64,000 nucleotides of DNA from sequence record OM858838, one strand, 5' to 3'. The notes below the pieces were generated by a model. The model was given only the letters and a program-made list of their open reading frames with translations, did not search any database and had not been told where the DNA came from. Position 1 is the first letter of the stretch; each line of letters starts with the position of its first letter. A program made the translations under genes and the position numbers. Below are positions 4,026 to 57,634 of this stretch, in pieces. Source of the DNA: Shigella phage B2.

Positions 4026-4967
4026 AATATGCAACAAATCCCATCCTCTAAGAGTCCTTATGCCAAGCCTATTAAGCGATGCTTTAAAGCTGGTAAAGGT
4101 TGGCTTCTTATTGGGTTAGACTTTGCATCTCTAGAGGACCGTATTTCAGCTCTGACAACCAAAGACCCCAATAAACTTAAAGTTTATACTGATGGGTATG
4201 ATGGTCATTCTCTCAGAGCATTCGCTTACTTTGGCGACCAAATGCCTGATATTCAGAATACAGTGGATAGTATTAATAGTATTCAGGACTTATATAAGGA
4301 CTTTAGACAAGAATCTAAAGCTCCTACTTTTGCACTTACCTATCAAGGTACTTATCACACATTGATGGCTAACTGTGGCTTCCCAGAAGACAAAGCGAAA
4401 ATGGTTGAAAAGAGGTATCACGAACTCTATTTCGTCTCTGACCAATGGGTAGACGCCAAGTTAGCACAAGCCAGCAAAGATGGTTATATCACTGCTGCAT
4501 TCGGATTAAGAATCCGTACTCCATTACTCAAAAATGTTGTCTGGGGAATTAAACAAACACCATATGAAGCCAAAGCAGAAGGCAGAACTGCTGGTAATGC
4601 TTTAGGTCAGTCTTGGTGCTTGTTAAATAACCGAGCAGCAAATGAGTTTATGGAACGTGTATGGAATTCTCCTTATGCAGATGTAATCAAACCATGCGCT
4701 CAAATTCATGATGCTCAGTATTATCTGGTTCCAGATGATATTGATATTGTTCATTGGGTTAATGAGAACTTAGTTGAGTGTGTTCAATGGCAAGACCATC
4801 CCGATATCTATCACGAGGAAGTGAAGTTAGGAGGAGATTTAAGTGTCTTTTACCCATCATGGGCTAATGATATCTCCTTAAAGAATGGAGCTTCTAGAGA
4901 AGAAATCTTAGATACATGTGAAGTTGGATTGGATAAGTATCTTCACCCGGAGAAATATAAAAAATGA
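4026..4967 (+). CDS. family-A DNA polymerase, 3' part (palm/fingers); putative exon 2
   Basis: NMQQIP completes the split motif; motif A LDFASLEDRI, motif B KAPTFALTYQGTY, motif C QIHDAQY. Track ORF starts at GTG 4023. Confidence 0.8.
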   Translation, partial: NMQQIPSSKSPYAKPIKRCFKAGKGWLLIGLDFASLEDRISALTTKDPNKLKVYTDGYDGHSLRAFAYFGDQMPDIQNTVDSINSIQDLYKDFRQESKAPTFALTYQGTYHTLMANCGFPEDKAKMVEKRYHELYFVSDQWVDAKLAQASKDGYITAAFGLRIRTPLLKNVVWGIKQTPYEAKAEGRTAGNALGQSWCLLNNRAANEFMERVWNSPYADVIKPCAQIHDAQYYLVPDDIDIVHWVNENLVECVQWQDHPDIYHEEVKLGGDLSVFYPSWANDISLKNGASREEILDTCEVGLDKYLHPEKYKK

Positions 4968-44237: not shown

Positions 44238-44901
44238 TTACTAACTTGGTATGAGCTACTTCTTTAGCTGAATAGACTCCGCCTTCAATCAGTTGTCGCT
44301 GCTTCGCAGCTAGCTGTGAGGTTAATTCCCTCAGTTCACTAATTACACCACCTTCCTGCAATCCAACATTAAGTTCAATCTTATTGGCTTCAGGACGTTT
44401 GAGATGATTAAGTAATGAGTTAGCTGCTTCACACTTAACCTTCTCACTTTTAGCATTAAGCATTAAATCTGCTTGAACGTTAATAGCTTTCTGAAAGATA
44501 TCAGCATTAAGAACATGAGTTGGAACCAAAGTCTGTTCATAGATAAGGTTAACTAACTTACCTTTGTTGTATGCAGATACATAACAATGAATATCTTTAG
44601 TGGAAGTACCGGAGTTCAAGAAGTTTTGATATCGGTCTGGGAAAGTTTTTATATAAGCTTCAAAGTTGGTATGTCCCATTAGTTTAAAACTGACATACTT
44701 AACTGCGGATAAGTAGTCTTCAATCTTAAACTTACCATCCTTCATTACATGGGTATAAGACATTAAGTTATCTCTCAATACTTCACCCATAATGGGGTCA
44801 GAGAGAATCTTATTAATCTTATCCATTAAATCCTGATTAACACTGCCTTTATGATTTTGAGGCATTACAGCTTTAAACTGTTCTACTGATAACTGAGTCA
44901 T
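44206..44901 (-). CDS. hypothetical protein (terminase small subunit candidate by position)
   Basis: 231-aa ORF immediately upstream of and overlapping TerL. Confidence 0.35.
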   Translation of the reverse strand: MTQLSVEQFKAVMPQNHKGSVNQDLMDKINKILSDPIMGEVLRDNLMSYTHVMKDGKFKIEDYLSAVKYVSFKLMGHTNFEAYIKTFPDRYQNFLNSGTSTKDIHCYVSAYNKGKLVNLIYEQTLVPTHVLNADIFQKAINVQADLMLNAKSEKVKCEAANSLLNHLKRPEANKIELNVGLQEGGVISELRELTSQLAAKQRQLIEGGVYSAKEVAHTKLVIDGESERVDD

Positions 44902-45075: not shown

Positions 45076-45090
45076 AGCACCTTCGGTGCT
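45076..45090 (+). promoter_or_regulatory. TTC-loop hairpin (vRNAP-type promoter candidate) before tRNA cluster
   Basis: agcacc-ttc-ggtgct, no T-run after it. Confidence 0.35.
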
Positions 45091-45106: not shown

Positions 45107-45178
45107 GGTTCTATGGTCCAGTGGAAAGGATATTCCCCTGTCACGGGAAAGGCCCGAGTTCAATTCTCGGTAGAACCG
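45107..45178 (+). tRNA. tRNA-Asp (anticodon GTC)
   Basis: Hand-folded cloverleaf: acceptor ggttcta/tagaacc, D gtcc/ggat, anticodon stem ttccc/gggaa loop ctGTCac, T ccgag-ttcaatt-ctcgg, CCA encoded. Confidence 0.8.
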
Positions 45179-45185
45179 CCAATTA

Positions 45186-45260
45186 CAGGATATAGCTCAA
45201 GTTGGTTAGAGCACTCGGCTCATAACCGAGAGTGTCCAGGTTCGAAACCGGGTGGAACCA
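45186..45260 (+). tRNA. tRNA-Met-like element (anticodon CAT), acceptor stem unresolved
   Basis: Good D arm (gctc/gagc) and anticodon arm (ctcgg-ctCATaa-ccgag); the 5' end does not pair with the 3' tggaacc-a-cca in my fold. Confidence 0.35.
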
Positions 45261-45270
45261 CCAAATAATG

Positions 45271-45355
45271 AAGAGAGTCGTATAGCGGCCCAATACGCCA
45301 CCCGAACGTTACGACTAGTACGGAGAACACGCAGGTTCGAATCCTGCCTCTCTTC
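45271..45355 (+). tRNA. tRNA-like element without canonical anticodon arm (possible pseudo-tRNA)
   Basis: Perfect 7-bp acceptor aagagag/ctctctt, D arm gtat/atac, T arm gcagg-ttcgaat-cctgc; the 33-nt middle has no 5-bp/7-nt-loop hairpin. Confidence 0.3.
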
Positions 45356-45361
45356 ACAAAT

Positions 45362-45435
45362 TGTCTCATAGCTCAGTAGGTCAGAGCGTTCCCCTGATAA
45401 GGGAAAGGTCACTAGTTCGATTCCAATTGAGACAA
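45362..45435 (+). tRNA. tRNA-Ile (anticodon GAT)
   Basis: Acceptor tgtctca/tgagaca + a + CCA, D gctc/gagc, anticodon ttccc-ctGATaa-gggaa; T stem has two mismatches. Confidence 0.6.
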
Positions 45436-45579
45436 CCATCCAATAGATTACAGTTCGTATCTCTTAGGGGAATACACTTGTAATTGCGGCCCGATAGGAA
45501 AGGGTAATTTCTCGACGATGGGAGTAGACCATTGACTGTTTGGAATAGACAACTGACGCTGTGAACGAGAACAGGAACA

Positions 45580-45666
45580 AGATGAGTCGTATAATAGGCA
45601 AATACAATATTCATGTTTCGCTATAGGCATGGAGAAGGAACGTGAGTTCGAGTCTCACCTCATCAA
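45580..45666 (+). tRNA. tRNA-like element, paralog of 45271-45355
   Basis: Shares agaNgag-tc-gtat...atac 5' half and a ttcgagt T arm (gtgag/ctcac); 1:72 mismatch and no canonical anticodon arm. Confidence 0.25.
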
Positions 45667-45766
45667 TAGTTCTTATCAGGGATTACTTACTACTATATAT
45701 CATACATTACCTCGCCTGGTGTGTTGGTGTTACCTCGGTAGATAAGTAATCCACTAATAAGAATTT

Positions 45767-45849
45767 GGAAGATTCCGCTCAGTGGTGGGCAATCCGGTTT
45801 GAACCCGGAGGTGCTGGTAACGGTAGGGGTTCGACTCCTCAATCTTCCG
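45767..45849 (+). tRNA. tRNA-Ser (anticodon TGA), type II
   Basis: Acceptor ggaagat/atcttcc + g + CCA, anticodon tccgg-ttTGAac-ccgga, long variable arm. Confidence 0.7.
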
Positions 45850-45858
45850 CCAATATTT

Positions 45859-45931
45859 GATAGGATAGCTAACTCGGTAAAGCGGCAGACTGTTAATCTG
45901 CGACATTAGGGTTCAAATCCCTATCCCATCG
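45859..45931 (+). tRNA. tRNA-Asn (anticodon GTT)
   Basis: Anticodon gcaga-ctGTTaa-tctgc, T taggg-ttcaaat-cccta, acceptor with one A.C mismatch, CCA encoded. Confidence 0.75.
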
Positions 45932-46099
45932 CCAAACTTGCAGGTAACTCTGCAATCCGTGACCAGTCGGTATGTTTATTAGTATGTAAAAGGCTGGGCT
46001 TCCTGCCTCTCATAGCCATACTCTTAAATGAATAACTGGTAGTCCAGCCAAGCGCACGAAGATGGGGACCCTCACCATCGGACAAAACGAGGGTACTAA

Positions 46100-46173
46100 G
46101 CATCCTTAGCTCAGTTGGATAGAGCAGTAGCCTTCTAAGCTATTGGTCACTGGTTCGAATCCAGTAGGGTGTA
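46100..46173 (+). tRNA. tRNA-Arg (anticodon TCT)
   Basis: D gctc/gagc, anticodon gtagc-ctTCTaa-gctat, T actgg-ttcgaat-ccagt, acceptor with two G.U pairs, CCA encoded. Confidence 0.8.
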
Positions 46174-46177
46174 CCAA

Positions 46178-46250
46178 GCTCACTAAGTTCATATGGGTGA
46201 ACGCCTGCCTTGTAAGCAGGATGAACGCGGTTCGATTCCGTGGGTGAGCA
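46178..46250 (+). tRNA. tRNA-Thr (anticodon TGT)
   Basis: Acceptor gctcact/ggtgagc, D gttc/gaac, anticodon cctgc-ctTGTaa-gcagg, T cgcgg-ttcgatt-ccgtg, CCA encoded; unusual A at position 8. Confidence 0.75.
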
Positions 46251-46255
46251 CCAAT

Positions 46256-46338
46256 GGGAGTATGGTGAAATCGGTAGACACAAGGGATTTAAAATCCCTC
46301 GGCTTATAGCTGTACGAGTTCGAGTCTCGTTACTCCCA
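46256..46338 (+). tRNA. tRNA-Leu (anticodon TAA), type II
   Basis: Acceptor gggagta/tactccc + a + CCA, anticodon aggga-ttTAAaa-tccct, long variable arm, T acgag-ttcgagt-ctcgt. Confidence 0.85.
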
Positions 46339-46363
46339 CCAAATTAATACAAGGAAAATCCCA

Positions 46364-48085: not shown

Positions 48086-49348
48086 ATGTCTACCCCTTGT
48101 GAAAGATTAGGTTATAAAGAAGGAATGCAGTTCACTCTCGTCAACGATGATGTTGATGGATTGAGTGCTGGTGATACCCTCTGGCTTCATAGTGATGATG
48201 GTTCACATAATCCTGAATTCCGTGATACTGAAAAAGTAAACGATGATACTGAAACCTACTACATCGATTTAAACTGTGTAGCTCGTTGTACCGAAGATGA
48301 AACACTCGCCTATAACCGTGGCTTAAGAGAAGGAGATATCCTTCAGATGGTTATGGATGATGATGGTGAGGAAGCCTATGAAGGCGATATCATCACATTC
48401 ATCAAAGATGATGGAGATACCTGTCCTCAATTTGAAGTACAGAAGGATGGTAATAAGGCTTACCTGTACCTCTCTCATGTAGGTGGATTAGAACCTAAAG
48501 TAGGTCGTAAGGTTCGTGTAATCCATAACTGTACTGGTGGGTTCTCTTCAGGTACTGAAGGAACTATTGTTGATATCTGTTCTGATGGGGACTATTTGAT
48601 TGCAGCACGTGGAGATACCATGTATCACCATGCTGACTCCTGTATTGTCTTCGGCTATGCAGATGACGAATCCTCTGACAGTAAAGACCCTGAACCAGTA
48701 AAAGAAGATTACCCAACTAAACCTGCTTCTGAATGGAAACAAGGTGATAGAGGTATTGTTCGTGGTCAGCAAGATAATGACCCACATAACTTCCAGATTG
48801 GTGAAGAGATTACCTTTGAACGGGGAAGAGACTCAGAAAGAGGTATCTTCCGAGGTACTAAGTACACTTCTACTCAAAACATTCAATATGATTTGATTGA
48901 AGTAGTCTCTATTGAACCGTACCCAATCACTGTTACTAAAGTATCCAAAGAGAATCCTGTAGCCTGTATCAAAGCTATACGTGCTGCTACTGGGTTAGGT
49001 TTGTATGAAGCTAAACAAGCTTATGACTTTGTTAGAGATAACGAAGAACCATACAGCTTACAGATAATCATCTCTAAAGGTGAGTTAACTCATCTCTTTA
49101 CTGAAGCAGGTATCGAATACTTCTTTGATAGACAAACTGAAGTATCTGGAACCAAACCAACAGTAATCATCTGTGATGAGTTAGCTGATACTTCTAAGAA
49201 GTATAAATACTTCATTGATGGTGATTCCATTGAAGTAACATTAGTTGGATACTTCGAAGGTGAACCCATCTGTGCTTACAAAGACAGATGGGGTGATATT
49301 CAAACCTTCGTAGCTAAACAATCACTTCTGGTATCTGATGATGACTAA
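48086..49348 (+). CDS. acidic protein with ribosomal L7/L12 C-terminal-domain-like segment
   Basis: Start set at ATG 48086 after TAGGAG RBS (track 47954 start runs through the terminator); segment PVACIKAIRAATGLGLYEAKQ and following ISKGELTHLFTEAGIEY resemble E. coli L7/L12 CTD (recalled as [26 protein letters not shown]). Confidence 0.5.
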   Translation: MSTPCERLGYKEGMQFTLVNDDVDGLSAGDTLWLHSDDGSHNPEFRDTEKVNDDTETYYIDLNCVARCTEDETLAYNRGLREGDILQMVMDDDGEEAYEGDIITFIKDDGDTCPQFEVQKDGNKAYLYLSHVGGLEPKVGRKVRVIHNCTGGFSSGTEGTIVDICSDGDYLIAARGDTMYHHADSCIVFGYADDESSDSKDPEPVKEDYPTKPASEWKQGDRGIVRGQQDNDPHNFQIGEEITFERGRDSERGIFRGTKYTSTQNIQYDLIEVVSIEPYPITVTKVSKENPVACIKAIRAATGLGLYEAKQAYDFVRDNEEPYSLQIIISKGELTHLFTEAGIEYFFDRQTEVSGTKPTVIICDELADTSKKYKYFIDGDSIEVTLVGYFEGEPICAYKDRWGDIQTFVAKQSLLVSDDD

Positions 49349-49517
49349 ACTACCTGGCATTGGTACTAAACCTTTGTTTGTAATTGATGGCCTCAATCCT
49401 GTTGAGGTCTCTATTGTCGCCCACTACAAAGACAAAGCTGTATTCATCTACTTAACCAAAGATAAGTTTGAACGAGTAGATATGGCTACAGCTCCCTGCT
49501 TCAGGAACCAAAAGTAA
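49341..49517 (+). CDS. small ORF (58 aa), possibly translationally coupled
   Basis: ATG 49341 precedes the upstream stop at 49346-49348 by 5 nt. Confidence 0.25.
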   Translation: MTKLPGIGTKPLFVIDGLNPVEVSIVAHYKDKAVFIYLTKDKFERVDMATAPCFRNQK

Positions 49518-49519
49518 TC

Positions 49520-49762
49520 ATGGTAAAAGACCCACTTGCTCTCTCATTAGAAAAACGTAAGCTATGGAGAAGGGCTGCTACTCGATGGTTAGAACTATTA
49601 ACATCCAGAGACTTAACAGCTACTGAGATGGATTGGGTCTTAGCCAGAAGAGACTATTGCACTAGAAAGACTAAGAGAGCAGAACCTCTTATAGATTCTG
49701 GAGTAATACACGGAGCACCTAACTCATTTATCTATGATTACTTTGGCTTTCTCCGTAAATGA
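49520..49762 (+). CDS. hypothetical protein
   Basis: 80-aa ORF followed by a 9-bp hairpin at 49766-49788. Confidence 0.35.
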   Translation: MVKDPLALSLEKRKLWRRAATRWLELLTSRDLTATEMDWVLARRDYCTRKTKRAEPLIDSGVIHGAPNSFIYDYFGFLRK

Positions 49763-49878
49763 ATAATGGGGTACAGATAGTACCCCATTTCATAAACCAG
49801 TATCAAACCAATAGTAACTAACTCTATCACTAACCATTTCATCTCCCTACCCTCATAACATTCATAGGAACCAATCCA

Positions 49879-50121
49879 ATGAACGAAATCATTATACTCT
49901 CTTCTCTTGGTTTTATCTTTGGTTGGATTACATCAAGAGTTAACTACAAACGTAAGATTATTAGATGCATTAGTAACATTACCTTTGAATCTAACTCTTC
50001 TAACAAGGATTTCAAGAATGGTATAGACAGGGGAATAGAATCTACTAAAGACTACATAATCAGAGTACTTATCAACAACAAGTTAGATAAGGATTATAGT
50101 AAAAGATATAATAAAGACTAA
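49879..50121 (+). CDS. hypothetical small membrane protein
   Basis: 80 aa, N-terminal hydrophobic helix, very AT-rich. Confidence 0.3.
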   Translation: MNEIIILSSLGFIFGWITSRVNYKRKIIRCISNITFESNSSNKDFKNGIDRGIESTKDYIIRVLINNKLDKDYSKRYNKD

Positions 50122-50332
50122 CTAACTACTGTCAATATGTAATTTAATACAGTACTAACTAAGGAATACCAATGAAGTTACATGATATCTTATTCATAGT
50201 ACTAGCTATTGTACTGTTTGGATTAGCAGTATATCTAAGTAAATAATTATTATTTTTTAAAGGGTTAGAGAATTTTTAATAATTACTTACCAATGTAGTA
50301 TTACTGCACACAATCTTTTATTAATCCGAATA

Positions 50333-50343
50333 CCCCCCCCCCC
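50333..50343. repeat. C11 homopolymer tract
   Basis: atac-c(11)-atac in an AT-rich intergenic region. Confidence 0.9.
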
Positions 50344-50360
50344 ATACTTCACACATCCAT

Positions 50361-50373
50361 GAGTCTTCGACTC
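50361..50373 (+). promoter_or_regulatory. TTC-loop hairpin + GTGGAG (vRNAP-type promoter candidate)
   Basis: gagtc-ttc-gactc then ta-gtggag, ~45 nt upstream of 50419 ORF. Confidence 0.4.
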
Positions 50374-50418
50374 TAGTGGAGCAATGGTGCTCTACTTAAT
50401 CATGATTAGGAGTATGTT

Positions 50419-50760
50419 ATGAAACCTGTTAACTCTATCGGTATCTTCGGTGCTGTATCTTCCTCAACTGTATCTGCATTGAATGCAATTGAACGTGGTG
50501 CAGTAGCTGTAGCCAATACTGCCAACATGGCTGTAGCTGTTACTGAATGGGGCAATGATGAAATCGAGAACCTTCGTCATCACCGTGCTATCAAACGTGA
50601 GGTAGAGGGTGAAATCTTCCGTACTAAATATGTTATGGAAGCTGCTAAAGAAGTAGCAGAAGTACATGCAGAAGCAGAGAAATCCATGAAGGATGCATCA
50701 CCAGAGGTTAAAGCAGTGTTCGATGCACTGGTAGCCAAACATTTGGGTAACAAGAAATAA
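50419..50760 (+). CDS. hypothetical early protein
   Basis: 113-aa ORF with AGGAG RBS. Confidence 0.45.
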   Translation: MKPVNSIGIFGAVSSSTVSALNAIERGAVAVANTANMAVAVTEWGNDEIENLRHHRAIKREVEGEIFRTKYVMEAAKEVAEVHAEAEKSMKDASPEVKAVFDALVAKHLGNKK

Positions 50761-51173
50761 TCACTAAGGCTCAAGGATGAGCCAAGGAACAATTATGTTA
50801 ATCAACATTGAAATTATTATCCGTAAACTAAAGTGCAAAGCAATCTATCATCTGAATGTTATTGCTCTACATGCATACGCTAAAGGTCTACGTACCTCCG
50901 GTAATATTACATCAGTAGCTGTACGGTATGTACGTATCAAAACCATATCTTCATCACTGTAATCAATCTCTTACCTCTGGCTAATGCTGGAGGTCAAGAG
51001 CAAATCACACATTACACATATGATAGATAGTATGTATATATTACCAGTGTATAAACATACACCATGCTGTAACGCTCTAGGAAGCTCTACAAGAGGTTTT
51101 GAGAAGAGGTAATAGGGTAGGAGAGTTGATACTATTCTATCTCAATCTAGGTAGCATTGAGGACTTATATTGC

Positions 51174-51203
51174 ACTTACTTCGTAAGTATCTCACTTCGT
51201 GAG
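51174..51203 (+). promoter_or_regulatory. tandem pair of TTC-loop hairpins (promoter candidates)
   Basis: acttac-ttc-gtaagt and ctcac-ttc-gtgag, 3 nt apart. Confidence 0.4.
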
Positions 51204-51205
51204 TA

Positions 51206-51544
51206 ATGGGTAGAGCAAAAGAGAGAATTCACATGGCTATCATCCATTCAATCATTGGTTCTAATTCAGAACCATCAACAGTAGTAGTCAACAAGTATAA
51301 GGAACCATACGATGTATATATCGGTAGAGGTAGTCTATGGGGAAATCCTTATACAGTTCAAGAACATGGCAGAGAACTATGCATTGCAATGTATGAGCAA
51401 TACATACGTGCAAGACTACATCAAGAACCTGATTTATATCTTCAATTACTTGAGCTTAAAGGTAAGAAGCTAGGCTGCTTCTGTAAACCTAAACCATGTC
51501 ATGGTGATGTATTAGTTAGACTCATCCAAGAGTACTCAAACTAA
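51206..51544 (+). CDS. conserved-domain protein (YIGR...WGNP...CxC...CHGD motif), start uncertain
   Basis: DVYIGRGSLWGNPY...GKKLGCFCKPKPCHGDVL; true start may be the internal Met at 51233 because the hairpins abut 51206. Confidence 0.45.
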   Translation: MGRAKERIHMAIIHSIIGSNSEPSTVVVNKYKEPYDVYIGRGSLWGNPYTVQEHGRELCIAMYEQYIRARLHQEPDLYLQLLELKGKKLGCFCKPKPCHGDVLVRLIQEYSN

Positions 51545-51602
51545 TAATCTAATACCCTTCAATTCCAATAAACATACTATAGAGCACTTAGTTACTATCT
51601 AG

Positions 51603-51827
51603 GTGTTCAGGAGTGTATTTATGTCTATTAAATTAACTGTTGTTGCTAAACGTTATAACTCAGAGAAACTCATCAGAATACTTATGCCATGGGGTTCTAA
51701 CATCTCATATGGTAGACGTTGGCAAGTGTCATTTAGGGATGGTAGAGGTAGACACTATGACCATTCATTCGTAGCTAAACCAACTCGTAAACAGATTCGT
51801 AAACTCATCAAGGATATCAACAAATGA
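51603..51827 (+). CDS. hypothetical protein
   Basis: 74-aa ORF. Confidence 0.35.
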   Translation: MFRSVFMSIKLTVVAKRYNSEKLIRILMPWGSNISYGRRWQVSFRDGRGRHYDHSFVAKPTRKQIRKLIKDINK

Positions 51828-52114
51828 AACAGTACAAATTACTTGAAGGCTTTCACTCTATGCTTCCTCAAGAAGCTATCGTTCCATCTCAACCATCAGA
51901 CGTTCAGGAAGGTGATTACGTCAAGATTGGTGTAGAAACCAATGATGGTAAAGCAACAGAGAAGTTCTGGGCTGTTGTGTACTGCATTGACAGAGATAAC
52001 TGGAAGTATGGAGTACGTATCAATCAAGACCTCTGTCAAACTCAATTACATGGTCTTAGTGATGGTGATGAACTCATTGTTGAATTCAAACATATCGTAG
52101 CTGTTATTAAATAG
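51824..52114 (+). CDS. hypothetical protein
   Basis: 96-aa ORF. Confidence 0.4.
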   Translation: MKQYKLLEGFHSMLPQEAIVPSQPSDVQEGDYVKIGVETNDGKATEKFWAVVYCIDRDNWKYGVRINQDLCQTQLHGLSDGDELIVEFKHIVAVIK

Positions 52115-52200
52115 GAGCTATCAAATGGAATGGTGGTTAGCAGAGATTGTACCTAGCTTATTCGGAGCTATCGTAGGTGGTCTGGTTGTATATCTAGCTG

Positions 52201-52446
52201 TTGCTAAAGGAGAGGATGATGATGATGCGTAAGTCATTACATGTAGGTACTAAAACTGATGTTATTAAACGTCGCTCTAAACCAGTATTAGATGTGGAAT
52301 TTTTACATGTACGTATTAGTGAAACTTATAATGAATGTGGTCAGATGATTGCTGCTGGTGTTAATCCTTATGCTGCTGTTGTAGCTATGGATACCAAGCT
52401 CAGTCGTATTGTTACATTCAATCATCCTAATCTTCTGAACATGTAA
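52201..52446 (+). CDS. hypothetical protein
   Basis: 81-aa ORF. Confidence 0.3.
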   Translation: MLKERMMMMRKSLHVGTKTDVIKRRSKPVLDVEFLHVRISETYNECGQMIAAGVNPYAAVVAMDTKLSRIVTFNHPNLLNM

Positions 52447-52453
52447 TATCTTC

Positions 52454-52470
52454 ATCACCGTCTTCGACGG
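52454..52470 (+). promoter_or_regulatory. TTC-loop hairpin + GTGGAG (vRNAP-type promoter candidate)
   Basis: caccgtc-ttc-gacggtg followed immediately by gtggag. Confidence 0.45.
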
Positions 52471-52506
52471 TGGTGGAGTTCTCCCTTAAGTTCTCCTTCT
52501 CCTGTA

Positions 52507-52521
52507 AGAGCGACTTCGTCG
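52507..52521 (+). promoter_or_regulatory. TTC-loop hairpin + GGTGGA (vRNAP-type promoter candidate)
   Basis: agcgac-ttc-gtcgct followed by ggtggaa; ~45 nt upstream of 52565 ORF. Confidence 0.45.
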
Positions 52522-52564
52522 CTGGTGGAATAATCCAATTCAATTAACTATCGAGGTAATTATC

Positions 52565-52981
52565 ATGGCAGTATTAAACGGTTCTAACAACGCTTCTTCT
52601 ATCATCGGTGCTGCTCTGGGTGGTAAACCTGCTGCTGGTGCACAGCGTCCACAAGCTGAAGTATTTATCAACGTTGGTATCAACGTACAGATGCCTAACG
52701 AAGAAGGTGAGATGGTTGATACCTTCCTGTCTCTGCCTTTCGGCCTGCCGTTGGATACCATGAATGAACTGGTGATTCGTGGTAATAACCAGCAGTGGAA
52801 TGAGCAGGCTGCTGCTCGTAATGAGCTTCTGAAAGCTCTGGTCAAAATGGGTGAAGCTCTGGATGCTGGTACTGGTACAGAGATGCCTAAGCTCAGTGTT
52901 CAACTGTATCGCCGTAAGGCTCAGGAAGAACATCAGGCCAGCAACAACGCAATGGCTCAGATTCTGGCTGCATTGAGCTAA
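52565..52981 (+). CDS. early protein, host-like codon usage
   Basis: 138-aa ORF with ctg/cgt/ggt-rich codons, flanked by two hairpin promoter candidates and a strong terminator. Confidence 0.55.
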   Translation: MAVLNGSNNASSIIGAALGGKPAAGAQRPQAEVFINVGINVQMPNEEGEMVDTFLSLPFGLPLDTMNELVIRGNNQQWNEQAAARNELLKALVKMGEALDAGTGTEMPKLSVQLYRRKAQEEHQASNNAMAQILAALS

Positions 52982-52990
52982 TCGAATAAT

Positions 52991-53019
52991 GGGATACCTT
53001 CGGGTATCCCTTATTTTTT
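52991..53019 (+). terminator. rho-independent terminator
   Basis: gggatacc-cttc-gggtatccc then ttatttttt. Confidence 0.8.
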
Positions 53020-53028
53020 GGAGGGGAC

Positions 53029-53211
53029 ATGCGTGTATTAGCAGTGTTAATTCTGTTTCTAGTTATCTTCGGGAAACTAGTACTCAATGTTATCGAAGAA
53101 GATACAGTGCAATACCAGCATCAAATGAAATGCGTCAAAGAGAAGATTGCCAACGGGATTCCTCGTAGTGCAATCAAGTTAACTACTGATTCATGTGAGG
53201 TTATCAAATGA
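53029..53211 (+). CDS. small membrane protein
   Basis: 60 aa, N-terminal hydrophobic helix. Confidence 0.35.
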   Translation: MRVLAVLILFLVIFGKLVLNVIEEDTVQYQHQMKCVKEKIANGIPRSAIKLTTDSCEVIK

Positions 53212-53375
53212 ATTTATTCTTGTTGTTAGTGTTCATCGTGCTGCGCACGCTCATTGGGTTGTTCTGGTTTGTAGTGGAAATGGTATGGTTCCTGTTCTGC
53301 GTAATGATTGGAATCCTATCTTTACCCTATTACTTAGGTGTCATCATCAGAGCAGTAGCTAAGCCCTCGAAATGA
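53208..53375 (+). CDS. small membrane protein (55 aa)
   Basis: ATGA overlap with upstream stop; MNLFLLLVFIVLRTLIGLFWFVV...; below track cutoff. Confidence 0.35.
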   Translation: MNLFLLLVFIVLRTLIGLFWFVVEMVWFLFCVMIGILSLPYYLGVIIRAVAKPSK

Positions 53376-53405
53376 GGGCTATATTACGCTTAAGGTAGAT
53401 AGTCA

Positions 53406-53609
53406 ATGAATGGAGATTTGATAGATATATTAGAACTAATAGTTGTTCTCAAATTAGGTAATAGAAATAAAGTATGTAACCACATAATGATACATAGAAT
53501 GTGTAATGATATTCCATGTAGTGAATGCCTACTTAATACAAGTAAAGTATATATTTCTGACTATCCAATTCAAATCATTGAAATGAAAGGTAAGCTAAAT
53601 GAACAATGA
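53406..53609 (+). CDS. small four-Cys protein, paralog family member 1
   Basis: MNGDLIDIL... with C-x8-C-x4-C-x2-C. Confidence 0.5.
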   Translation: MNGDLIDILELIVVLKLGNRNKVCNHIMIHRMCNDIPCSECLLNTSKVYISDYPIQIIEMKGKLNEQ

Positions 53610-53811
53610 TTTATTCTTAATTCTTAGTTCTATTAAAGCTGCATTAGGTGAAGGTAGAGGTAAAAATACTTCTGCTGATTTTCTATGTAATGGTATTCAT
53701 GATACTGACCCTGAACAATGTCATTATGTTAATTGTATTGATTGTATAGTTGGATATAAAGATTCAACTAAATATGCACATCAGATAATCCAGACATGGA
53801 AAATATTATGA
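53599..53811 (+). CDS. small four-Cys protein, paralog 2
   Basis: MNNDLFLILSSIK..., C-x10-C-x4-C-x2-C, C-terminal YAHQIIQTW. Confidence 0.5.
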   Translation: MNNDLFLILSSIKAALGEGRGKNTSADFLCNGIHDTDPEQCHYVNCIDCIVGYKDSTKYAHQIIQTWKIL

Positions 53812-54017
53812 ATAAAGAACTTAAGTTAATTTTATTTACTTTAAAAATGAAAATTAAATTTGGTAATGGAACTGCCGAAAACTTATGTAGAAGTATGGTA
53901 ATAGATATTGATGGAGAATTAATTCCTCAATGTACTCAAATTTCTTGTTTTAATTGTCTATTTTATCAAGATTCTACTTATGCAGAAAAGGTAATACATG
54001 TCTGGCATCAACTCTGA
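53808..54017 (+). CDS. small four-Cys protein, paralog 3
   Basis: Start at ATGA overlap; MNKELKLILFTLK..., four Cys, YAEKVIHVW. Confidence 0.5.
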   Translation: MNKELKLILFTLKMKIKFGNGTAENLCRSMVIDIDGELIPQCTQISCFNCLFYQDSTYAEKVIHVWHQL

Positions 54018-54243
54018 ATTATTATTCATACTTCAAAGTATTAAAAACTCTATGGCAAAAGAAGAAGTACAAAATAAGAGAGGTATTCAATGGGGAGAAT
54101 CAGATAAATTGTGTACAGAACATTTATATAATGTATGTGGGGATAAAACATCTAAAAATATATGTGATGATTGCTTAATTGGATACAAAGATAATGTTGG
54201 ATATGCATCCAATATGATTATTGTAATTCAAAAGTTAATCTAA
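53998..54243 (+). CDS. small four-Cys protein, paralog 4
   Basis: ...NSELLFILQSIK..., C-x8-C-x8-C-x2-C, YASNMIIVIQ. Confidence 0.5.
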   Translation: MSGINSELLFILQSIKNSMAKEEVQNKRGIQWGESDKLCTEHLYNVCGDKTSKNICDDCLIGYKDNVGYASNMIIVIQKLI

Positions 54244-54316
54244 GGGCTATCAATATTGGTAGTCCAATATTAATGTCTCGTTAGATAGTTGTACTTCAAT
54301 CCAAGAGGATATCAAT

Positions 54317-54556
54317 ATGTCAAAGAAAACTAAGTCAGCTAAACCAGTAGAAGTTAAGTTAGGTAATGTTCCTGATTATACAGTGACTTATAGTCGTCAA
54401 GAACAGTTATGGGGAGTCCATATTAATGGTATCTCTGCATACATTCTCAAACGACCTATTGGTAAAAAGAATATGTATTACGTAGGTACTCGTTATTTCA
54501 AAACACTACGTGATGCAATCTTCAGTGTTGTATTGGGGAATTCACTTCCCTTCTAG
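54317..54556 (+). CDS. hypothetical basic protein (not of the Cys family)
   Basis: 79-aa ORF preceded by an AT-rich 8-bp hairpin at 54252-54271. Confidence 0.4.
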   Translation: MSKKTKSAKPVEVKLGNVPDYTVTYSRQEQLWGVHINGISAYILKRPIGKKNMYYVGTRYFKTLRDAIFSVVLGNSLPF

Positions 54557-54564
54557 GAGAAGTA

Positions 54565-54738
54565 ATGAACCAAGAGTTAATACTTATTCTCTCAGCCATT
54601 AGAGAAAATAAAGGAATATGTACTAAATATTCTGTTAAATGTCATGGAATAGATTGTGGAAACTGTATTCTAGCAGAAGTATATATACAAAACTTCTACA
54701 AAGATTATATAGTTAAAATGGGTGAGAGAATATTATGA
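54565..54738 (+). CDS. small four-Cys protein, paralog 5 (57 aa)
   Basis: MNQELILILSAIR..., C-x6-C-x4-C-x2-C; below track cutoff; stop overlaps next start. Confidence 0.45.
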   Translation: MNQELILILSAIRENKGICTKYSVKCHGIDCGNCILAEVYIQNFYKDYIVKMGERIL

Positions 54739-54965
54739 ATAGAGAATTACTAACAATAATAGAATCTCTATGTAAAAAGGTAGTATTTAAAAGCCATTCA
54801 GGGCTAGAGTTCATAGAAACTAAGCCTGAAATGTGTCGTATTATTTCATTAAGAGTTCCTCGTAGATGCGAAGGAACTAGTTGCTGTAATTGTTATTTCT
54901 CAAGGAGTAAACAATTACATGAAGTTTATACTTTATATTTAAAAAGACTTATTCAACGTATTTAG
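54735..54965 (+). CDS. small Cys-rich protein, paralog 6
   Basis: MNRELLTIIESL..., Cys cluster ending CCNC. Confidence 0.5.
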   Translation: MNRELLTIIESLCKKVVFKSHSGLEFIETKPEMCRIISLRVPRRCEGTSCCNCYFSRSKQLHEVYTLYLKRLIQRI

Positions 54966-54987
54966 TTTTCCTTGTCGCTTCGCTCCT

Positions 54988-55000
54988 CAGCCTTCGGCTG
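54988..55000 (+). promoter_or_regulatory. TTC-loop hairpin + GGTGAA (promoter candidate)
   Basis: cagcc-ttc-ggctg then ttctggtgaa, ~30 nt upstream of 55031 ORF. Confidence 0.35.
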
Positions 55001-55030
55001 TTCTGGTGAATTATAAACTTAGAGGTAAAT

Positions 55031-55534
55031 ATGTTAGAAGCTCGCGGTAATATGCTTGAAATGGAATGTGATGCGTTGTGCATTACTACCAATGGATTTG
55101 TTAAAAGCAATGGTGCATCAGTTATGGGTGCTGGTATTGCAAAGCAGATGCGAGTAACTATTCCTGGACTGGATAAAATTCTAGGTCAGAAGATTGCTCG
55201 TGAAGGTAACAATGTTCATTTCTTATTAAATTATAACAATATTGGAATTGTATCCTTCCCTGTTAAACCAATAACAGAAATTAGTAATGGTGAGAACTTT
55301 GTTAAACATAAGTTCTTCCCTGTAGGTACAACAGTTCCGGGATGGGCATGTAAAGCAAACATCGATTTGATTGTACGTTCATGCCAGCAACTGGTAGCAC
55401 TGGCTGACCAATATGGTTGGCAGAAAGTCTTATTACCAAGACCGGGATGTGGTGCTGGTGAGCTTAACTGGAGCCATGTGAAGAAGGTTATTGAACCTTT
55501 GTTAGATGACAGGTTTATCGTCTGCACCTATTGA
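55031..55534 (+). CDS. macro-domain-like protein (possible ADP-ribose binding/hydrolase)
   Basis: N-terminal DALCITTNGFVKSNGASVMGAGIA resembles the macro-domain Gly-rich block; 167 aa. Confidence 0.4.
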   Translation: MLEARGNMLEMECDALCITTNGFVKSNGASVMGAGIAKQMRVTIPGLDKILGQKIAREGNNVHFLLNYNNIGIVSFPVKPITEISNGENFVKHKFFPVGTTVPGWACKANIDLIVRSCQQLVALADQYGWQKVLLPRPGCGAGELNWSHVKKVIEPLLDDRFIVCTY

Positions 55535-55541
55535 GGTGAGT

Positions 55542-55745
55542 ATGGGTAACCAATTAATAGTAATATTTAAAGAATTACTTCACTCAGGAGTGAATCCTAC
55601 TTTATGTCATAACTATATTGGCACTGAATGTGTAGACATACCATCATGCGCAAATTGCCCTTTATCTAGTACTTCATTCGCAAAACATCCTGAAAGAAAT
55701 TTCCCTAATCAGTTATTTACTGTATTGGAGAAGTTGAATGGATAA
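55542..55745 (+). CDS. small four-Cys protein, paralog 7
   Basis: Start at ATG 55542 after GAGGTGAG; MGNQLIVIFKELL..., C-x8-C-x6-C-x2-C. Confidence 0.45.
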   Translation: MGNQLIVIFKELLHSGVNPTLCHNYIGTECVDIPSCANCPLSSTSFAKHPERNFPNQLFTVLEKLNG

Positions 55746-55968
55746 ATTAATTACCATTTTAAATGGAATATATAATTTACCTGAACGCAAAGACTACGCT
55801 CCAAAAGAGTACATATGTGATTTAATCATATGTCCTGATGTACTTTGCAGTAATTGTCCAATGGGCAACCCACATTATTTAAATCCTGACAAAGAATTAT
55901 TTGTCACTCAAATCCATAAAACATTGGAAGTCATGAACCATGAAACAAGAAACTCAACTCCTGATTGA
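55738..55968 (+). CDS. small four-Cys protein, paralog 8
   Basis: MDKLITILNGIY..., C-x4-C-x4-C-x2-C. Confidence 0.45.
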   Translation: MDKLITILNGIYNLPERKDYAPKEYICDLIICPDVLCSNCPMGNPHYLNPDKELFVTQIHKTLEVMNHETRNSTPD

Positions 55969-56863
55969 ATCTATGTTCAACCGTCACCAATCTCGTGACC
56001 TAATTAGAAATGAAATTAGAACTTCACCTGAAGTTATGGAGTTAGTTAGTGCTGCTGTAGATAAAGCACTGGAATGGGTAGAAGGTGATTACTTTGAAAG
56101 TAAGAACAAACGTCTGGCATTATTGGATACCAATATCCTAGAAGACTTCTACATTGATGTTGCTGGTTCATTGGCTCAATTTGGTAAGGCTAAGTATACC
56201 CAGATAGTAGGTATGGTATCTGGAATGATTTCTACTATGCCTCAGAAAGAGGCTATAAGGACTGCTGGAGAGCTTATCTCATTAGCAGCTATGGTAGACC
56301 TCATTGACCTGATTCCAGCCTCTATGAGCGTTACAGGCTCTATGGAACTGGTATCCCGTATACAGCTTGAACCAAAGACATTGGAACTGATTAACCAGTA
56401 TCAATATCTGCCTCCTATGCTTGTTCCCCCTGAACCAGTTAAATCAAATACTGGTAGTGGGTATCTGTCCATCAAATGGGATTCCCTGATTCTGAAGAAG
56501 AATCATCATGAGTTTGATATCTGTTTGGATAATATCAACAGATTTAACTCAGTAGCTTTCTCTCTGGATGACCGTGTAATCCGTAATATTAGGGATAACC
56601 GTAAACATCTGGATAGTGCTAAAGCTGATGAATCTGCTGATGAGTACAAAGCACGAGTTGATTCATTTCTGAAAATGGAAAAGGAATCTATGCGTGTATT
56701 TGCAATGCTCATCAATGAAGGGAACAGATTCTATCTGACTCACAAGTATGACAAACGAGGTCGTACTTACTGTCAGGGCTATCATGTCTCCTACCAAGGG
56801 AATACCTATCGTAAAGCTATTCTTGAATTAGCTGATAAAGAAATCGTACCCATTGAGGAATAA
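55940..56863 (+). CDS. RNA polymerase II small subunit candidate
   Basis: 307-aa ORF lying 770 bp upstream of the catalytic subunit gene, matching the two-gene RNAP II layout of N4-like phages; assignment is positional. Confidence 0.45.
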   Translation: MKQETQLLIESMFNRHQSRDLIRNEIRTSPEVMELVSAAVDKALEWVEGDYFESKNKRLALLDTNILEDFYIDVAGSLAQFGKAKYTQIVGMVSGMISTMPQKEAIRTAGELISLAAMVDLIDLIPASMSVTGSMELVSRIQLEPKTLELINQYQYLPPMLVPPEPVKSNTGSGYLSIKWDSLILKKNHHEFDICLDNINRFNSVAFSLDDRVIRNIRDNRKHLDSAKADESADEYKARVDSFLKMEKESMRVFAMLINEGNRFYLTHKYDKRGRTYCQGYHVSYQGNTYRKAILELADKEIVPIEE

Positions 56864-56865
56864 TC

Positions 56866-57006
56866 ATGTTTTGCATTATTACAGCAGCATATCTACGTCT
56901 TAAGAATAAGGTAGATGAAGATATAGTAATTGGTTCATGGCTTGCTGGTTTATTAGAGCTATGTCTTGAAGTACCAATGATTTTAACTTTAGCAGGTAAA
57001 CTTTAA
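56866..57006 (+). CDS. small hydrophobic ORF (46 aa)
   Basis: Tight coupling to flanking genes. Confidence 0.25.
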   Translation: MFCIITAAYLRLKNKVDEDIVIGSWLAGLLELCLEVPMILTLAGKL

Positions 57007-57242
57007 TGGCTGAATTATCCAAACCAGAACAACTCATTAAGATTACGCTATTACTGCGTGATATTCCTGATGAGTTAGAAAAACATTTCTGTAGTACTCA
57101 TCCTGCATGTGAAAAGTTTTGTGGTGCTGAGCATGACAAAACTAAATGTGCATTGTTCTATCTCTCTGAAGAAGAGATTAAGAAAACCATCTTTGGTCTA
57201 GATGCAGCAGGGAGGATGCTGGGAATCATTCCTGATGAATAA
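57006..57242 (+). CDS. small Cys-containing protein
   Basis: 78 aa with C-x5-C-x3-C-x7-C; possibly a divergent relative of the paralog family. Confidence 0.4.
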   Translation: MAELSKPEQLIKITLLLRDIPDELEKHFCSTHPACEKFCGAEHDKTKCALFYLSEEEIKKTIFGLDAAGRMLGIIPDE

Positions 57243-57417
57243 GGAATTAGTATTAATTCTTAGAGAATTGAAAAAAGCATCTGAAATACAAAACTCATGT
57301 TTTGGAACTAATTTCAGAGATTTTTCATGTACAAATGTTGATTGCCCTCAATGTATATTAAGTAACGTTAATAAATCTTTCAGATATTCAAGCCAAATTG
57401 TATTGGTGAATCTATGA
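57235..57417 (+). CDS. small four-Cys protein, paralog 9
   Basis: Start at internal ATG 57235; MNKELVLILRELKK..., C-x9-C-x4-C-x2-C. Confidence 0.45.
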   Translation: MNKELVLILRELKKASEIQNSCFGTNFRDFSCTNVDCPQCILSNVNKSFRYSSQIVLVNL

Positions 57418-57626
57418 ATGATGAATTGATTCTTATATTGGATTCATTCAGAAATTATTCAGTTAAAGATGGCTCATGTAGAGGAGATATATTCAATTTA
57501 ACAGGAACTTTTACACGTACACAGCAATGTGATGGCAAGTGTATTTCATGCCCATTAGTACAAATACGTGATAAAAAAATATATCCAGACCAAATCATTA
57601 TAACTTTCTCTCAACTAAATAAGTGA
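57414..57626 (+). CDS. small four-Cys protein, paralog 10
   Basis: MNDELILILDSFR..., C-x16-C-x3-C-x2-C, YPDQIIITFSQL. Confidence 0.5.
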   Translation: MNDELILILDSFRNYSVKDGSCRGDIFNLTGTFTRTQQCDGKCISCPLVQIRDKKIYPDQIIITFSQLNK

Positions 57627-57634
57627 GACTCAAG

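Follow-up and report, generated by a model that had tools for sequence, protein, structure and literature searches.

The window analysed in this work is a stretch of 64,000 nucleotides (nt) of Shigella phage B2 (sequence record OM858838), and its subject is an array of ten small open reading frames (ORFs) at positions 53406-57626. All ten ORFs are on the + strand and encode proteins of 57-81 amino acids (aa). As judged by profile comparison they are one homologous family of paralogues, which agrees, coordinates included, with the claim of the first-pass annotation of the window that ten paralogous small four-Cys proteins are encoded here. The same annotation described the array as interleaved with the genes of the phage RNA polymerase II (RNAP II), and this is correct, both subunit genes being identified by PHROGs and the large one by Pfam as well. 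Sequences of this family are already in the databases as unnamed hypothetical proteins. The members are listed below; E is the value obtained in a leave-one-out search with hidden Markov models (HMMs).

53406-53609, + strand: F1, 67 aa, 4 Cys; E 3.2e-9; matches phrog_28062
53599-53811, + strand: F2, 70 aa; E 4.7e-14; orthologues 69-96% identical
53808-54017, + strand: F3, 69 aa; alternative start 53796; ATGA overlap with F2; E 3.6e-9
53998-54243, + strand: F4, 81 aa; variant spacing C-x8-C-x2-C; E 1.9e-7
54565-54738, + strand: F5, 57 aa, the minimal member and the one modelled; E 6.8e-11
54735-54965, + strand: F6, 76 aa, 6 Cys, basic; ATGA overlap with F5; E 2.1e-8
55542-55745, + strand: F7, 67 aa; alternative start 55506; C-x5-C-x2-C; E 2e-7
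55738-55968, + strand: F8, 76 aa; E 2.2e-4, the weakest of the ten
57235-57417, + strand: F9, 60 aa; alternative start 57202; E 5.6e-10
57414-57626, + strand: F10, 70 aa; C-x3-C-x2-C; ATGA overlap with F9, GTGA overlap with the RNAP II large-subunit ORF; E 5.5e-10

The paralogues are 27-38% identical to one another within the window, and direct phmmer comparisons are weak and connect some pairs only. The homology was established by profiles built from nine members, which recovered the tenth in every case (E 5e-14 to 2e-4) from a search set consisting of all 474 ORFs of the window with at least 30 aa. The profile of all ten matches just these ten ORFs, and the next ORF of the window is found at E 0.26. 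An alignment and an HMM of the ten copies had been proposed by the first-pass annotation as a check; both were made, and every member was recovered. A further four-Cys ORF at 57006-57242 is superficially alike, with an N-terminal helix followed by FC, but its E is 5 and the hhalign probability is 1.8%. It is not detectably a member, so the family count in the window is ten. The search for recent tandem duplication or DNA-level repeats yielded only repeats of at most 29 nt, which reflect the conserved N-terminus. The earlier statement that many of the genes are coupled by ATGA overlaps is right for three exact junctions between members (F2/F3, F5/F6 and F9/F10), to which one GTGA can be added, and is otherwise slightly overstated; the other overlaps are 8-29 nt long. 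A Shine-Dalgarno-like sequence of the GGAG/GAGG/AAGG type is present 5' of most starts. Three of the ORFs have longer alternative starts (53796, 55506, 57202); the annotators of related phages use the short starts beginning with MN.

The region is about 90% identical at the nucleotide level to the Salmonella phages FSL SP-058, As2 and vB_SenP_UTK0001 (Schitoviridae, Humphriesvirinae, Ithacavirus). When 1.84 billion representative proteins were searched with the family profile, 88 clusters (50% identity) were retrieved at E <=1e-3, and all members except one are 57-89 aa long. The family is confined to the Humphriesvirinae and Triduovirus. A profile search over N4-like genomes for copy-number variation, suggested earlier, did reveal such variation, the number of copies per genome being between 7 and 13:

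SP154: 13 copies
FSL SP-058, As2, S5 and UTK0002: 12 copies each
UTK0001 and TR2 (Triduovirus): 11 copies each
present window: 10 copies
Pollock and KpCHEMY26: 8 copies each
Pylas: 7 copies
FSL SP-076: 9 copies counted within the leading 6 kb of its record, whose start falls in the array

The early regions of N4, ECBP1, PW7, Erwinia phage S6 and Vibrio phage VCO139 contain no copies. Three of the most divergent metagenomic members share a common gene order, i.e. a macro gene, the RNAP II small subunit, an 80-aa ORF, family genes and the RNAP II large subunit. The one member of unusual length is a 291-aa protein (P0018, L009 8001-8876) that has two tandem modules of the form LC...C-x-G-[VI]-x-C-x-N-C. 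Its contig is an unrelated, phage-like metagenomic sequence labelled as a Pacearchaeota metagenome-assembled genome, and the protein is a singleton with no other relatives. It is the only sign of the module outside the N4-like phages. We note that family copies are often unannotated in GenBank/RefSeq (5 of the 12 in FSL SP-058 and most of those in KpCHEMY26 and SP-076), which means that the published gene counts for these phages are too low.

The sequence pattern was investigated first in the ten members and then in 162 unique members, drawn from the window, from seven related genomes and from 87 representatives in the databases. The ten-member alignment has no variation at M1, L5, I8 and three of the Cys; nine of the ten also have the fourth Cys at the aligned column. 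In the larger set every protein has a CxxC, 160 have at least four Cys and 137 start with MN. The exact spacing C-x4-C-x2-C is present in 119 members (73%), and the range of the spacing is 1-13. The common scaffold can be written as M1-N2-x-E4-L5-[IL]6-x-I8-L9-x-x-I12; L23-C24; C34-x-G-[VI]-x-C39-x-N-C42-x-L44; Y53-x-x-Q56-I57-I58. Between these blocks there are three high-entropy segments (positions 13-22, 25-33 and 45-52), which also contain most of the insertions, up to 14 residues long. The N-terminal helix motif (here MNxELxxIL) and the Cys cluster described by the first-pass annotation hold across the ten and the 162 members; of the C-terminal Y..QII motif the Y and Q-I-I signal is present, but it is softer.

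An AlphaFold model of F5 was computed from a 94-sequence alignment (predicted local distance difference test, pLDDT, 77.5; predicted template modelling score, pTM, 0.55) and was used in place of a run on the ten paralogues alone, which gave a pLDDT of 58. The model contains three helices (3-14, 18-22 and 45-56) and no strands, and the Cys residues are in the linker between helices. This points to a helical hairpin with a Cys-rich clasp and not to a beta zinc ribbon. The hairpin would be composed of an amphipathic N-terminal helix and a C-terminal helix. Since the Cys residues are nearly invariant in what would be a cytoplasmic protein, their four side chains may meet at one metal site. The proteins had earlier been called zinc-ribbon-like, and this description is not supported: a zinc ribbon has two knuckles on beta hairpins, whereas here there is a single CxxC knuckle, the other two Cys are single and variably spaced, the model is helical, and neither a zinc ribbon nor any other fold was matched.

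The first-pass annotation did not recognise the family, and the databases scanned give the same picture. Pfam, NCBIfam, PADLOC, PDB and BFVD contain no named family or similar protein that matches. In PHROGs the sequences are scattered over phrog_16571, 14146, 32354 and 28062, all of "unknown function"; these clusters do hold the family, but in pieces and with no function, paralogy or motif recorded. Nine of the 11 proteins scanned (the ten members and the 57006 ORF) match phrog_16571. The sole PDB profile match, a B-box zinc finger, is non-significant (E 0.38). WhiB-like proteins were considered and rejected: the hhalign probability against M. tuberculosis WhiB1 is 0.9%, and the order of spacings differs from C-x(n)-C-x2-C-x5-C. 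The same was true of the ZAS anti-sigma factors (zf-HC2), for which hhalign gave 0.3% against RsrA. Their motif is H-x3-C-x2-C, whereas the family has C-x4-C-x2-C and no conserved His, and Pfam zf-HC2 was not matched. The literature on the related genomes, on N4-like phages and on anti-defence yielded no account of the family, of its paralogy or of its architecture.

The slots of the array are positionally conserved, i.e. the first copy pairs with the first and the last with the last. The positional orthologue of F1 is the first slot in As2, SP-058 and UTK0001 (68-76% identity), and the F10 slot is kept as the last copy 5' of the RNAP gene in Pollock, Pylas, KpCHEMY26 and TR2. An orthologue of F4 was found in As2 (70%) and Pollock (43%) only. 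The fact that the slots are kept, and that the final one is recognisable even in Pollock, Pylas and TR2, means that the duplications predate these genera. Within the slots the sequences vary substantially. Between Ithacavirus strains the family genes are 51-100% identical at the amino-acid level, whereas the conserved neighbours (the gp2-like, gp8-like, macro and RNAP II genes and the 57006 ORF) are 97-100% identical, except for the RNAP II large subunit against FSL SP-058 (91%) and the gp8 homologue against UTK0001 (89%). F9 is only 60-62% identical to its orthologues, as against 97-100% for the adjoining 57006 ORF, and F8 is 100% identical to its orthologues in As2 and UTK0001 and 65% identical to that in SP-058. 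The eight Ithacavirus genomes have 9-13 copies each, which fall into 17 sequence classes at 50% identity. The earlier view of the array as a paralogous expansion is borne out, and the array is a hotspot of variation between near-identical phages.

The synonymous divergence (Ks) of the family genes is raised alongside the nonsynonymous divergence (Ka), and the nearest alleles form a mosaic, being those of As2 in some slots and those of UTK0001 in others. Both facts suggest that much of the divergence is due to replacement of gene-sized alleles by recombination and not to fast point mutation alone. Ka/Ks was pooled along the minimum-spanning-tree edges between alleles (69 contrasts) and amounted to 0.22 in the scaffold (bootstrap 95% confidence interval 0.18-0.25), as against 0.44 (0.34-0.55) for the variable segments. 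Between these two classes of positions the ratio of nonsynonymous to synonymous counts is different (Fisher p = 2e-7). These values mean that the genes are coding and constrained, with variable segments that are twice as free as the scaffold. The family is under purifying selection. The earlier term "diversifying" does not apply in the strict sense of positive selection, as the pooled ratio is below 1 everywhere. Single allele pairs in F3, F5, F7 and F10 have variable-segment values of 1.05-1.96, which are noisy and come from about 27 codons only; they suggest that positive selection may act in these segments.

The array belongs to the left-end operons, in which the order is the DUF4326 gene (51206), the gp2-like gene, the array and the RNAP II subunit genes. 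It is located between homologues of gp2 and gp15/gp16 on the same strand, a position expected of genes of the N4 early set. The genes around and within it are the following:

52565-52981, + strand: gp2-like gene, N4 gp2 homologue, 5' of the array
54317-54556, + strand: N4 gp8 homologue within the array, not a family member; 79 aa; Pfam PF25713 N4_GP8 E 1.2e-26
55031-55534, + strand: macro-domain-like gene within the array; Pfam Macro E 0.0019 (under the curated cutoff); phrog_335 E 3.4e-27
55940-56863, + strand: RNAP II small subunit, N4 gp15-like; phrog_2166 "N4-like RNA polymerase" E 5e-114
57006-57242, + strand: 78-aa four-Cys protein between the RNAP II genes; phrog_22821; 97-100% identity to orthologues within Ithacavirus
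57623-58861, + strand: RNAP II large subunit, N4 gp16-like; Pfam RNA_pol E 4e-19; phrog_2051 E 6e-169

In relatives the macro-domain-like protein is annotated as phosphatase or ADP-ribose-binding. The 57006-57242 protein may be an RNAP II-associated factor; an orthologue is present in Erwinia phage S6 (gp029). The start of the large-subunit gene is ambiguous, i.e. either GTG at 57623, which overlaps the stop codon of F10 (GTGA), or ATG at 57635, 12 nt downstream. Relatives are annotated from the downstream ATG, which gives the 408-aa form.

The timing of expression was investigated by scanning for perfect hairpins whose stem is 5-9 bp and whose loop is 3 nt long. The window contains nine hairpins with a TTC triloop and stems of 5-7 bp on the + strand and none on the other strand, as compared to 0-1 in shuffled sequences. 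Six of them are within 50-60 kb (50361, 51191, 52456, 52509, 54988, 59797), the others being at 44298, 45076 and 62186. The hairpins closest to the array, together with a further hairpin of a different type, are these:

52456-52523, + strand: two N4-type early-promoter-like hairpins, CACCGTC-TTC-GACGGTG and AGCGAC-TTC-GTCGCT, 5' of the gp2-like gene and the first block of the array
52991-53010, + strand: terminator-like hairpin, GGGATACC-TTCG-GGTATCCC, with an 8-bp stem followed by a T-run, between the gp2-like gene and the genes leading into the array
54988-55000, + strand: early-promoter-like hairpin, CAGCC-TTC-GGCTG, in the gap between F6 and the macro-domain gene

The identical scan of N4 found hairpins at 90, 557 and 4546, which we take to be its three vRNAP early promoters. 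The one at 557 (GAAGC-NNN-GCTTC) is immediately 5' of gp2. The hairpin at 54988 is within the array, with the macro gene, F7, F8 and RNAP II downstream of it, and compares with the N4 hairpin at 4546, which likewise precedes the RNAP II genes. The hairpins recur at homologous sites in SP-058, As2, UTK0001, Pollock, Pylas, KpCHEMY26 and TR2, where the stems differ yet stay paired. For instance, the stem at the 54988 site is CAGCC/GGCTG in most of these phages and CTGCC/GGCAG in Pollock, and that 5' of gp2 is CACCGTC/GACGGTG in most and ACTGGC/GCCAGT in TR2. A related motif (gtggag, ggtggaa or ttctggtga) follows downstream of the hairpins. The TTC hairpins are likely to be the early promoters of this clade. 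As conserved hairpins are found both upstream of and inside the array, the array is very probably expressed early. The first-pass annotation had placed it in the early region, and the synteny with the homologues of N4 gp2, gp8, gp15 and gp16 and the conserved N4-type promoter hairpins both speak for this. The strong terminator-like hairpin at 52991-53010 comes directly after the gp2-like gene, with only about 10 nt between it and the ribosome-binding site that follows for the ORF at 53029, and suggests attenuated read-through into the array. A scan for sigma-70 promoters gave fewer sites than in shuffled sequences and was uninformative. We also note that the hairpin at 62186 has a T-run behind it.

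At 57-81 aa the proteins are too small for enzymes, and their genes are interleaved with the N4 gp8 homologue and the macro-domain gene, among genes of host takeover. The reading that we favour, with a probability of roughly 0.45, is that they are small metal-clasped binders, each paralogue neutralising a different host factor or defence component. The two helices would pack as a hairpin clasped by the four-Cys metal site, with Zn(Cys)4 as the most likely form a priori and an iron-sulphur (Fe-S) cluster as another possibility. The variable segments would form the surface that binds protein targets. The proteins would be synthesised in the first minutes of infection from the vRNAP promoters, and each of them would bind and neutralise one host protein, different for each paralogue, that is part of host immunity or a target of takeover. 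Between phages the repertoire would be reshuffled through recombination of gene-sized pieces and through the gain and loss of genes. A stronger version of this is that the array is an unrecognised multi-target anti-defence or takeover family and a natural small-binder scaffold, in which slot-specific loops on one metal-clasped mini-scaffold are directed against different host immune or housekeeping proteins, and alleles are traded slot by slot. This we put forward tentatively, as the less probable form of the proposal.

Several points weigh against the binder reading. The structure model is of moderate confidence only, and the convergence of the Cys residues is based on their conservation and not on inspected coordinates. 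As the overall Ka/Ks is below 1, it is the turnover of the genes, and not positive selection, that suggests an arms race. No similarity to known anti-defence proteins was found in PADLOC, NCBIfam or Pfam, no dedicated anti-defence library having been searched. Finally, the conservation of slots beside the RNAP II genes across genera could point to a role internal to the phage.

The last point leads to the main rival, according to which the proteins are accessory or specificity factors of phage transcription by RNAP II or vRNAP, e.g. selectors of promoter classes, anti-terminators or assembly factors. Four copies flank or separate the RNAP II subunit genes in slots that are kept in Pollock, Pylas, KpCHEMY26 and TR2, and there are translational overlaps at F8/small subunit, where the 3' end of F8 extends 29 nt into the start of the subunit gene, and at F10/large subunit. 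However, the small subunit is 99-100% and the large subunit 91-99% identical between strains, while identities in the adjoining family genes are 51-97% and the number of these genes varies; such variability would not be expected in partners of an enzyme that is so well conserved. Moreover, N4, ECBP1, PW7, S6 and VCO139 have a homologous RNAP II and lack the family. We consider this explanation unlikely, if still the most serious competitor. The next in rank, and improbable in our judgement, is that the proteins bind nucleic acids as small metal fingers and regulate DNA or RNA of the host or the phage, e.g. as repressors, mRNA-decay adaptors or DNA mimics. The four-Cys cluster would fit a zinc finger, the B-box match mentioned above would go in the same direction, weak and non-significant as it is, and some members are strongly basic (F6 has an isoelectric point, pI, of 9.4 and a charge of +6.6). 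On the other hand, net charges between -7 and +8.5 occur among the members, the median being near 0, and 54% are acidic, which argues against a uniform nucleic-acid-binding role, and no known nucleic-acid-binding fold or family was matched.

A role in competition between phages and not in anti-defence proper, i.e. superinfection exclusion or a block to co-infecting phages, to satellites or to prophages, would account for the same rapid turnover and mosaicism and for the probable early expression. Present analyses do not distinguish it from the binder reading, but nothing speaks for it specifically, and we regard it as quite improbable. We give even less credit to the possibility that the four Cys carry an Fe-S cluster and that the proteins are redox- or nitric oxide-sensitive switches like the sigma-binding WhiB proteins; in favour of it one can say that the proteins are small and helical with four Cys, and that C-x-N-C-P-[LV] resembles the C-x-x-C-P of WhiB and ferredoxins. 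That the ORFs are non-functional leftovers or untranslated is very hard to reconcile with a Ka/Ks of 0.22-0.44 over hundreds of substitutions, with Cys residues that are nearly invariant over 162 members, with a family kept across four genera, or with the Shine-Dalgarno-like sites and coupled overlaps. The absence of several copies from the annotation of some GenBank records is what could be cited for it.

Hyperplastic accessory regions are known in lytic phages, for example the internal-protein cassettes of T4-type phages and the anti-defence islands of early regions. The present array is similar in that small early or accessory genes are swapped as gene-sized cassettes between nearly identical flanks. 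It differs from regions filled with unrelated ORFans, as its cassettes are all homologous and occupy 7-13 slots with one scaffold. With the zinc-ribbon, zinc-knuckle and B-box domains the family shares four conserved Cys including one CxxC, but it is helical in prediction, with no beta hairpins, one knuckle and no significant match. The WhiB-like [4Fe-4S] and ZAS anti-sigma proteins are likewise small and helical, and these have a four-ligand metal site and act by protein binding; homology to them is not detectable, and the order and spacing of the ligands and the taxonomic range are different. A precedent for N4-type early ORFs that act as single-target host inhibitors is N4 gp8 (PF25713), a small early protein that inhibits the host clamp loader. 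Its homologue in the window is small, early and in the same operon as the family, yet gp8 is unrelated in sequence, lacks the Cys cluster, is present in a single copy and is highly conserved (89-97% identity of 54317-54556 to orthologues).

With 10-13 genes per genome, one unnamed family makes up more than a tenth of the genes of these phages (about 92-105 annotated features each), and nothing in the early region, which is otherwise almost identical, varies more than this family. Several such phages, i.e. N4-like podophages of Salmonella, Klebsiella and E. coli, are considered for biocontrol. If the paralogues do disable different host factors or defences, this would help to explain host-range differences among near-identical phages. 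It would also provide a compact set of inhibitors for screening and a natural scaffold of 57 aa with three loop positions that tolerate insertions. Whatever the function, uniting the scattered hypothetical proteins corrects the annotation of the clade, in which half of the copies are uncalled in several records.

Some further features of the window were noted. The N4 gp8 homologue at 54317-54556 is labelled merely hypothetical in the related genomes, N4 gp8 being an inhibitor of host DNA replication. Two more small ORFs are located directly 5' of the array (53029-53375). The second of them (53208-53375) encodes a very hydrophobic protein of 55 aa in which two transmembrane helices are likely. 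Its identity to the counterparts is only 43-45%, although the phages compared are otherwise nearly the same, which makes it a further hypervariable early gene. An Rfam scan of 49000-60500 gave no match. A cluster of seven tRNAs (Asp, Ile, Ser, Asn, Arg, Thr and Leu-UAA) is found at 45107-46341, with the hairpin at 45076 located 31 nt upstream of it. Several of these tRNAs read A/T-ending codons (AAT, ATT, TTA) that are dominant in the N-terminal MN.EL.LIL motif of the family.

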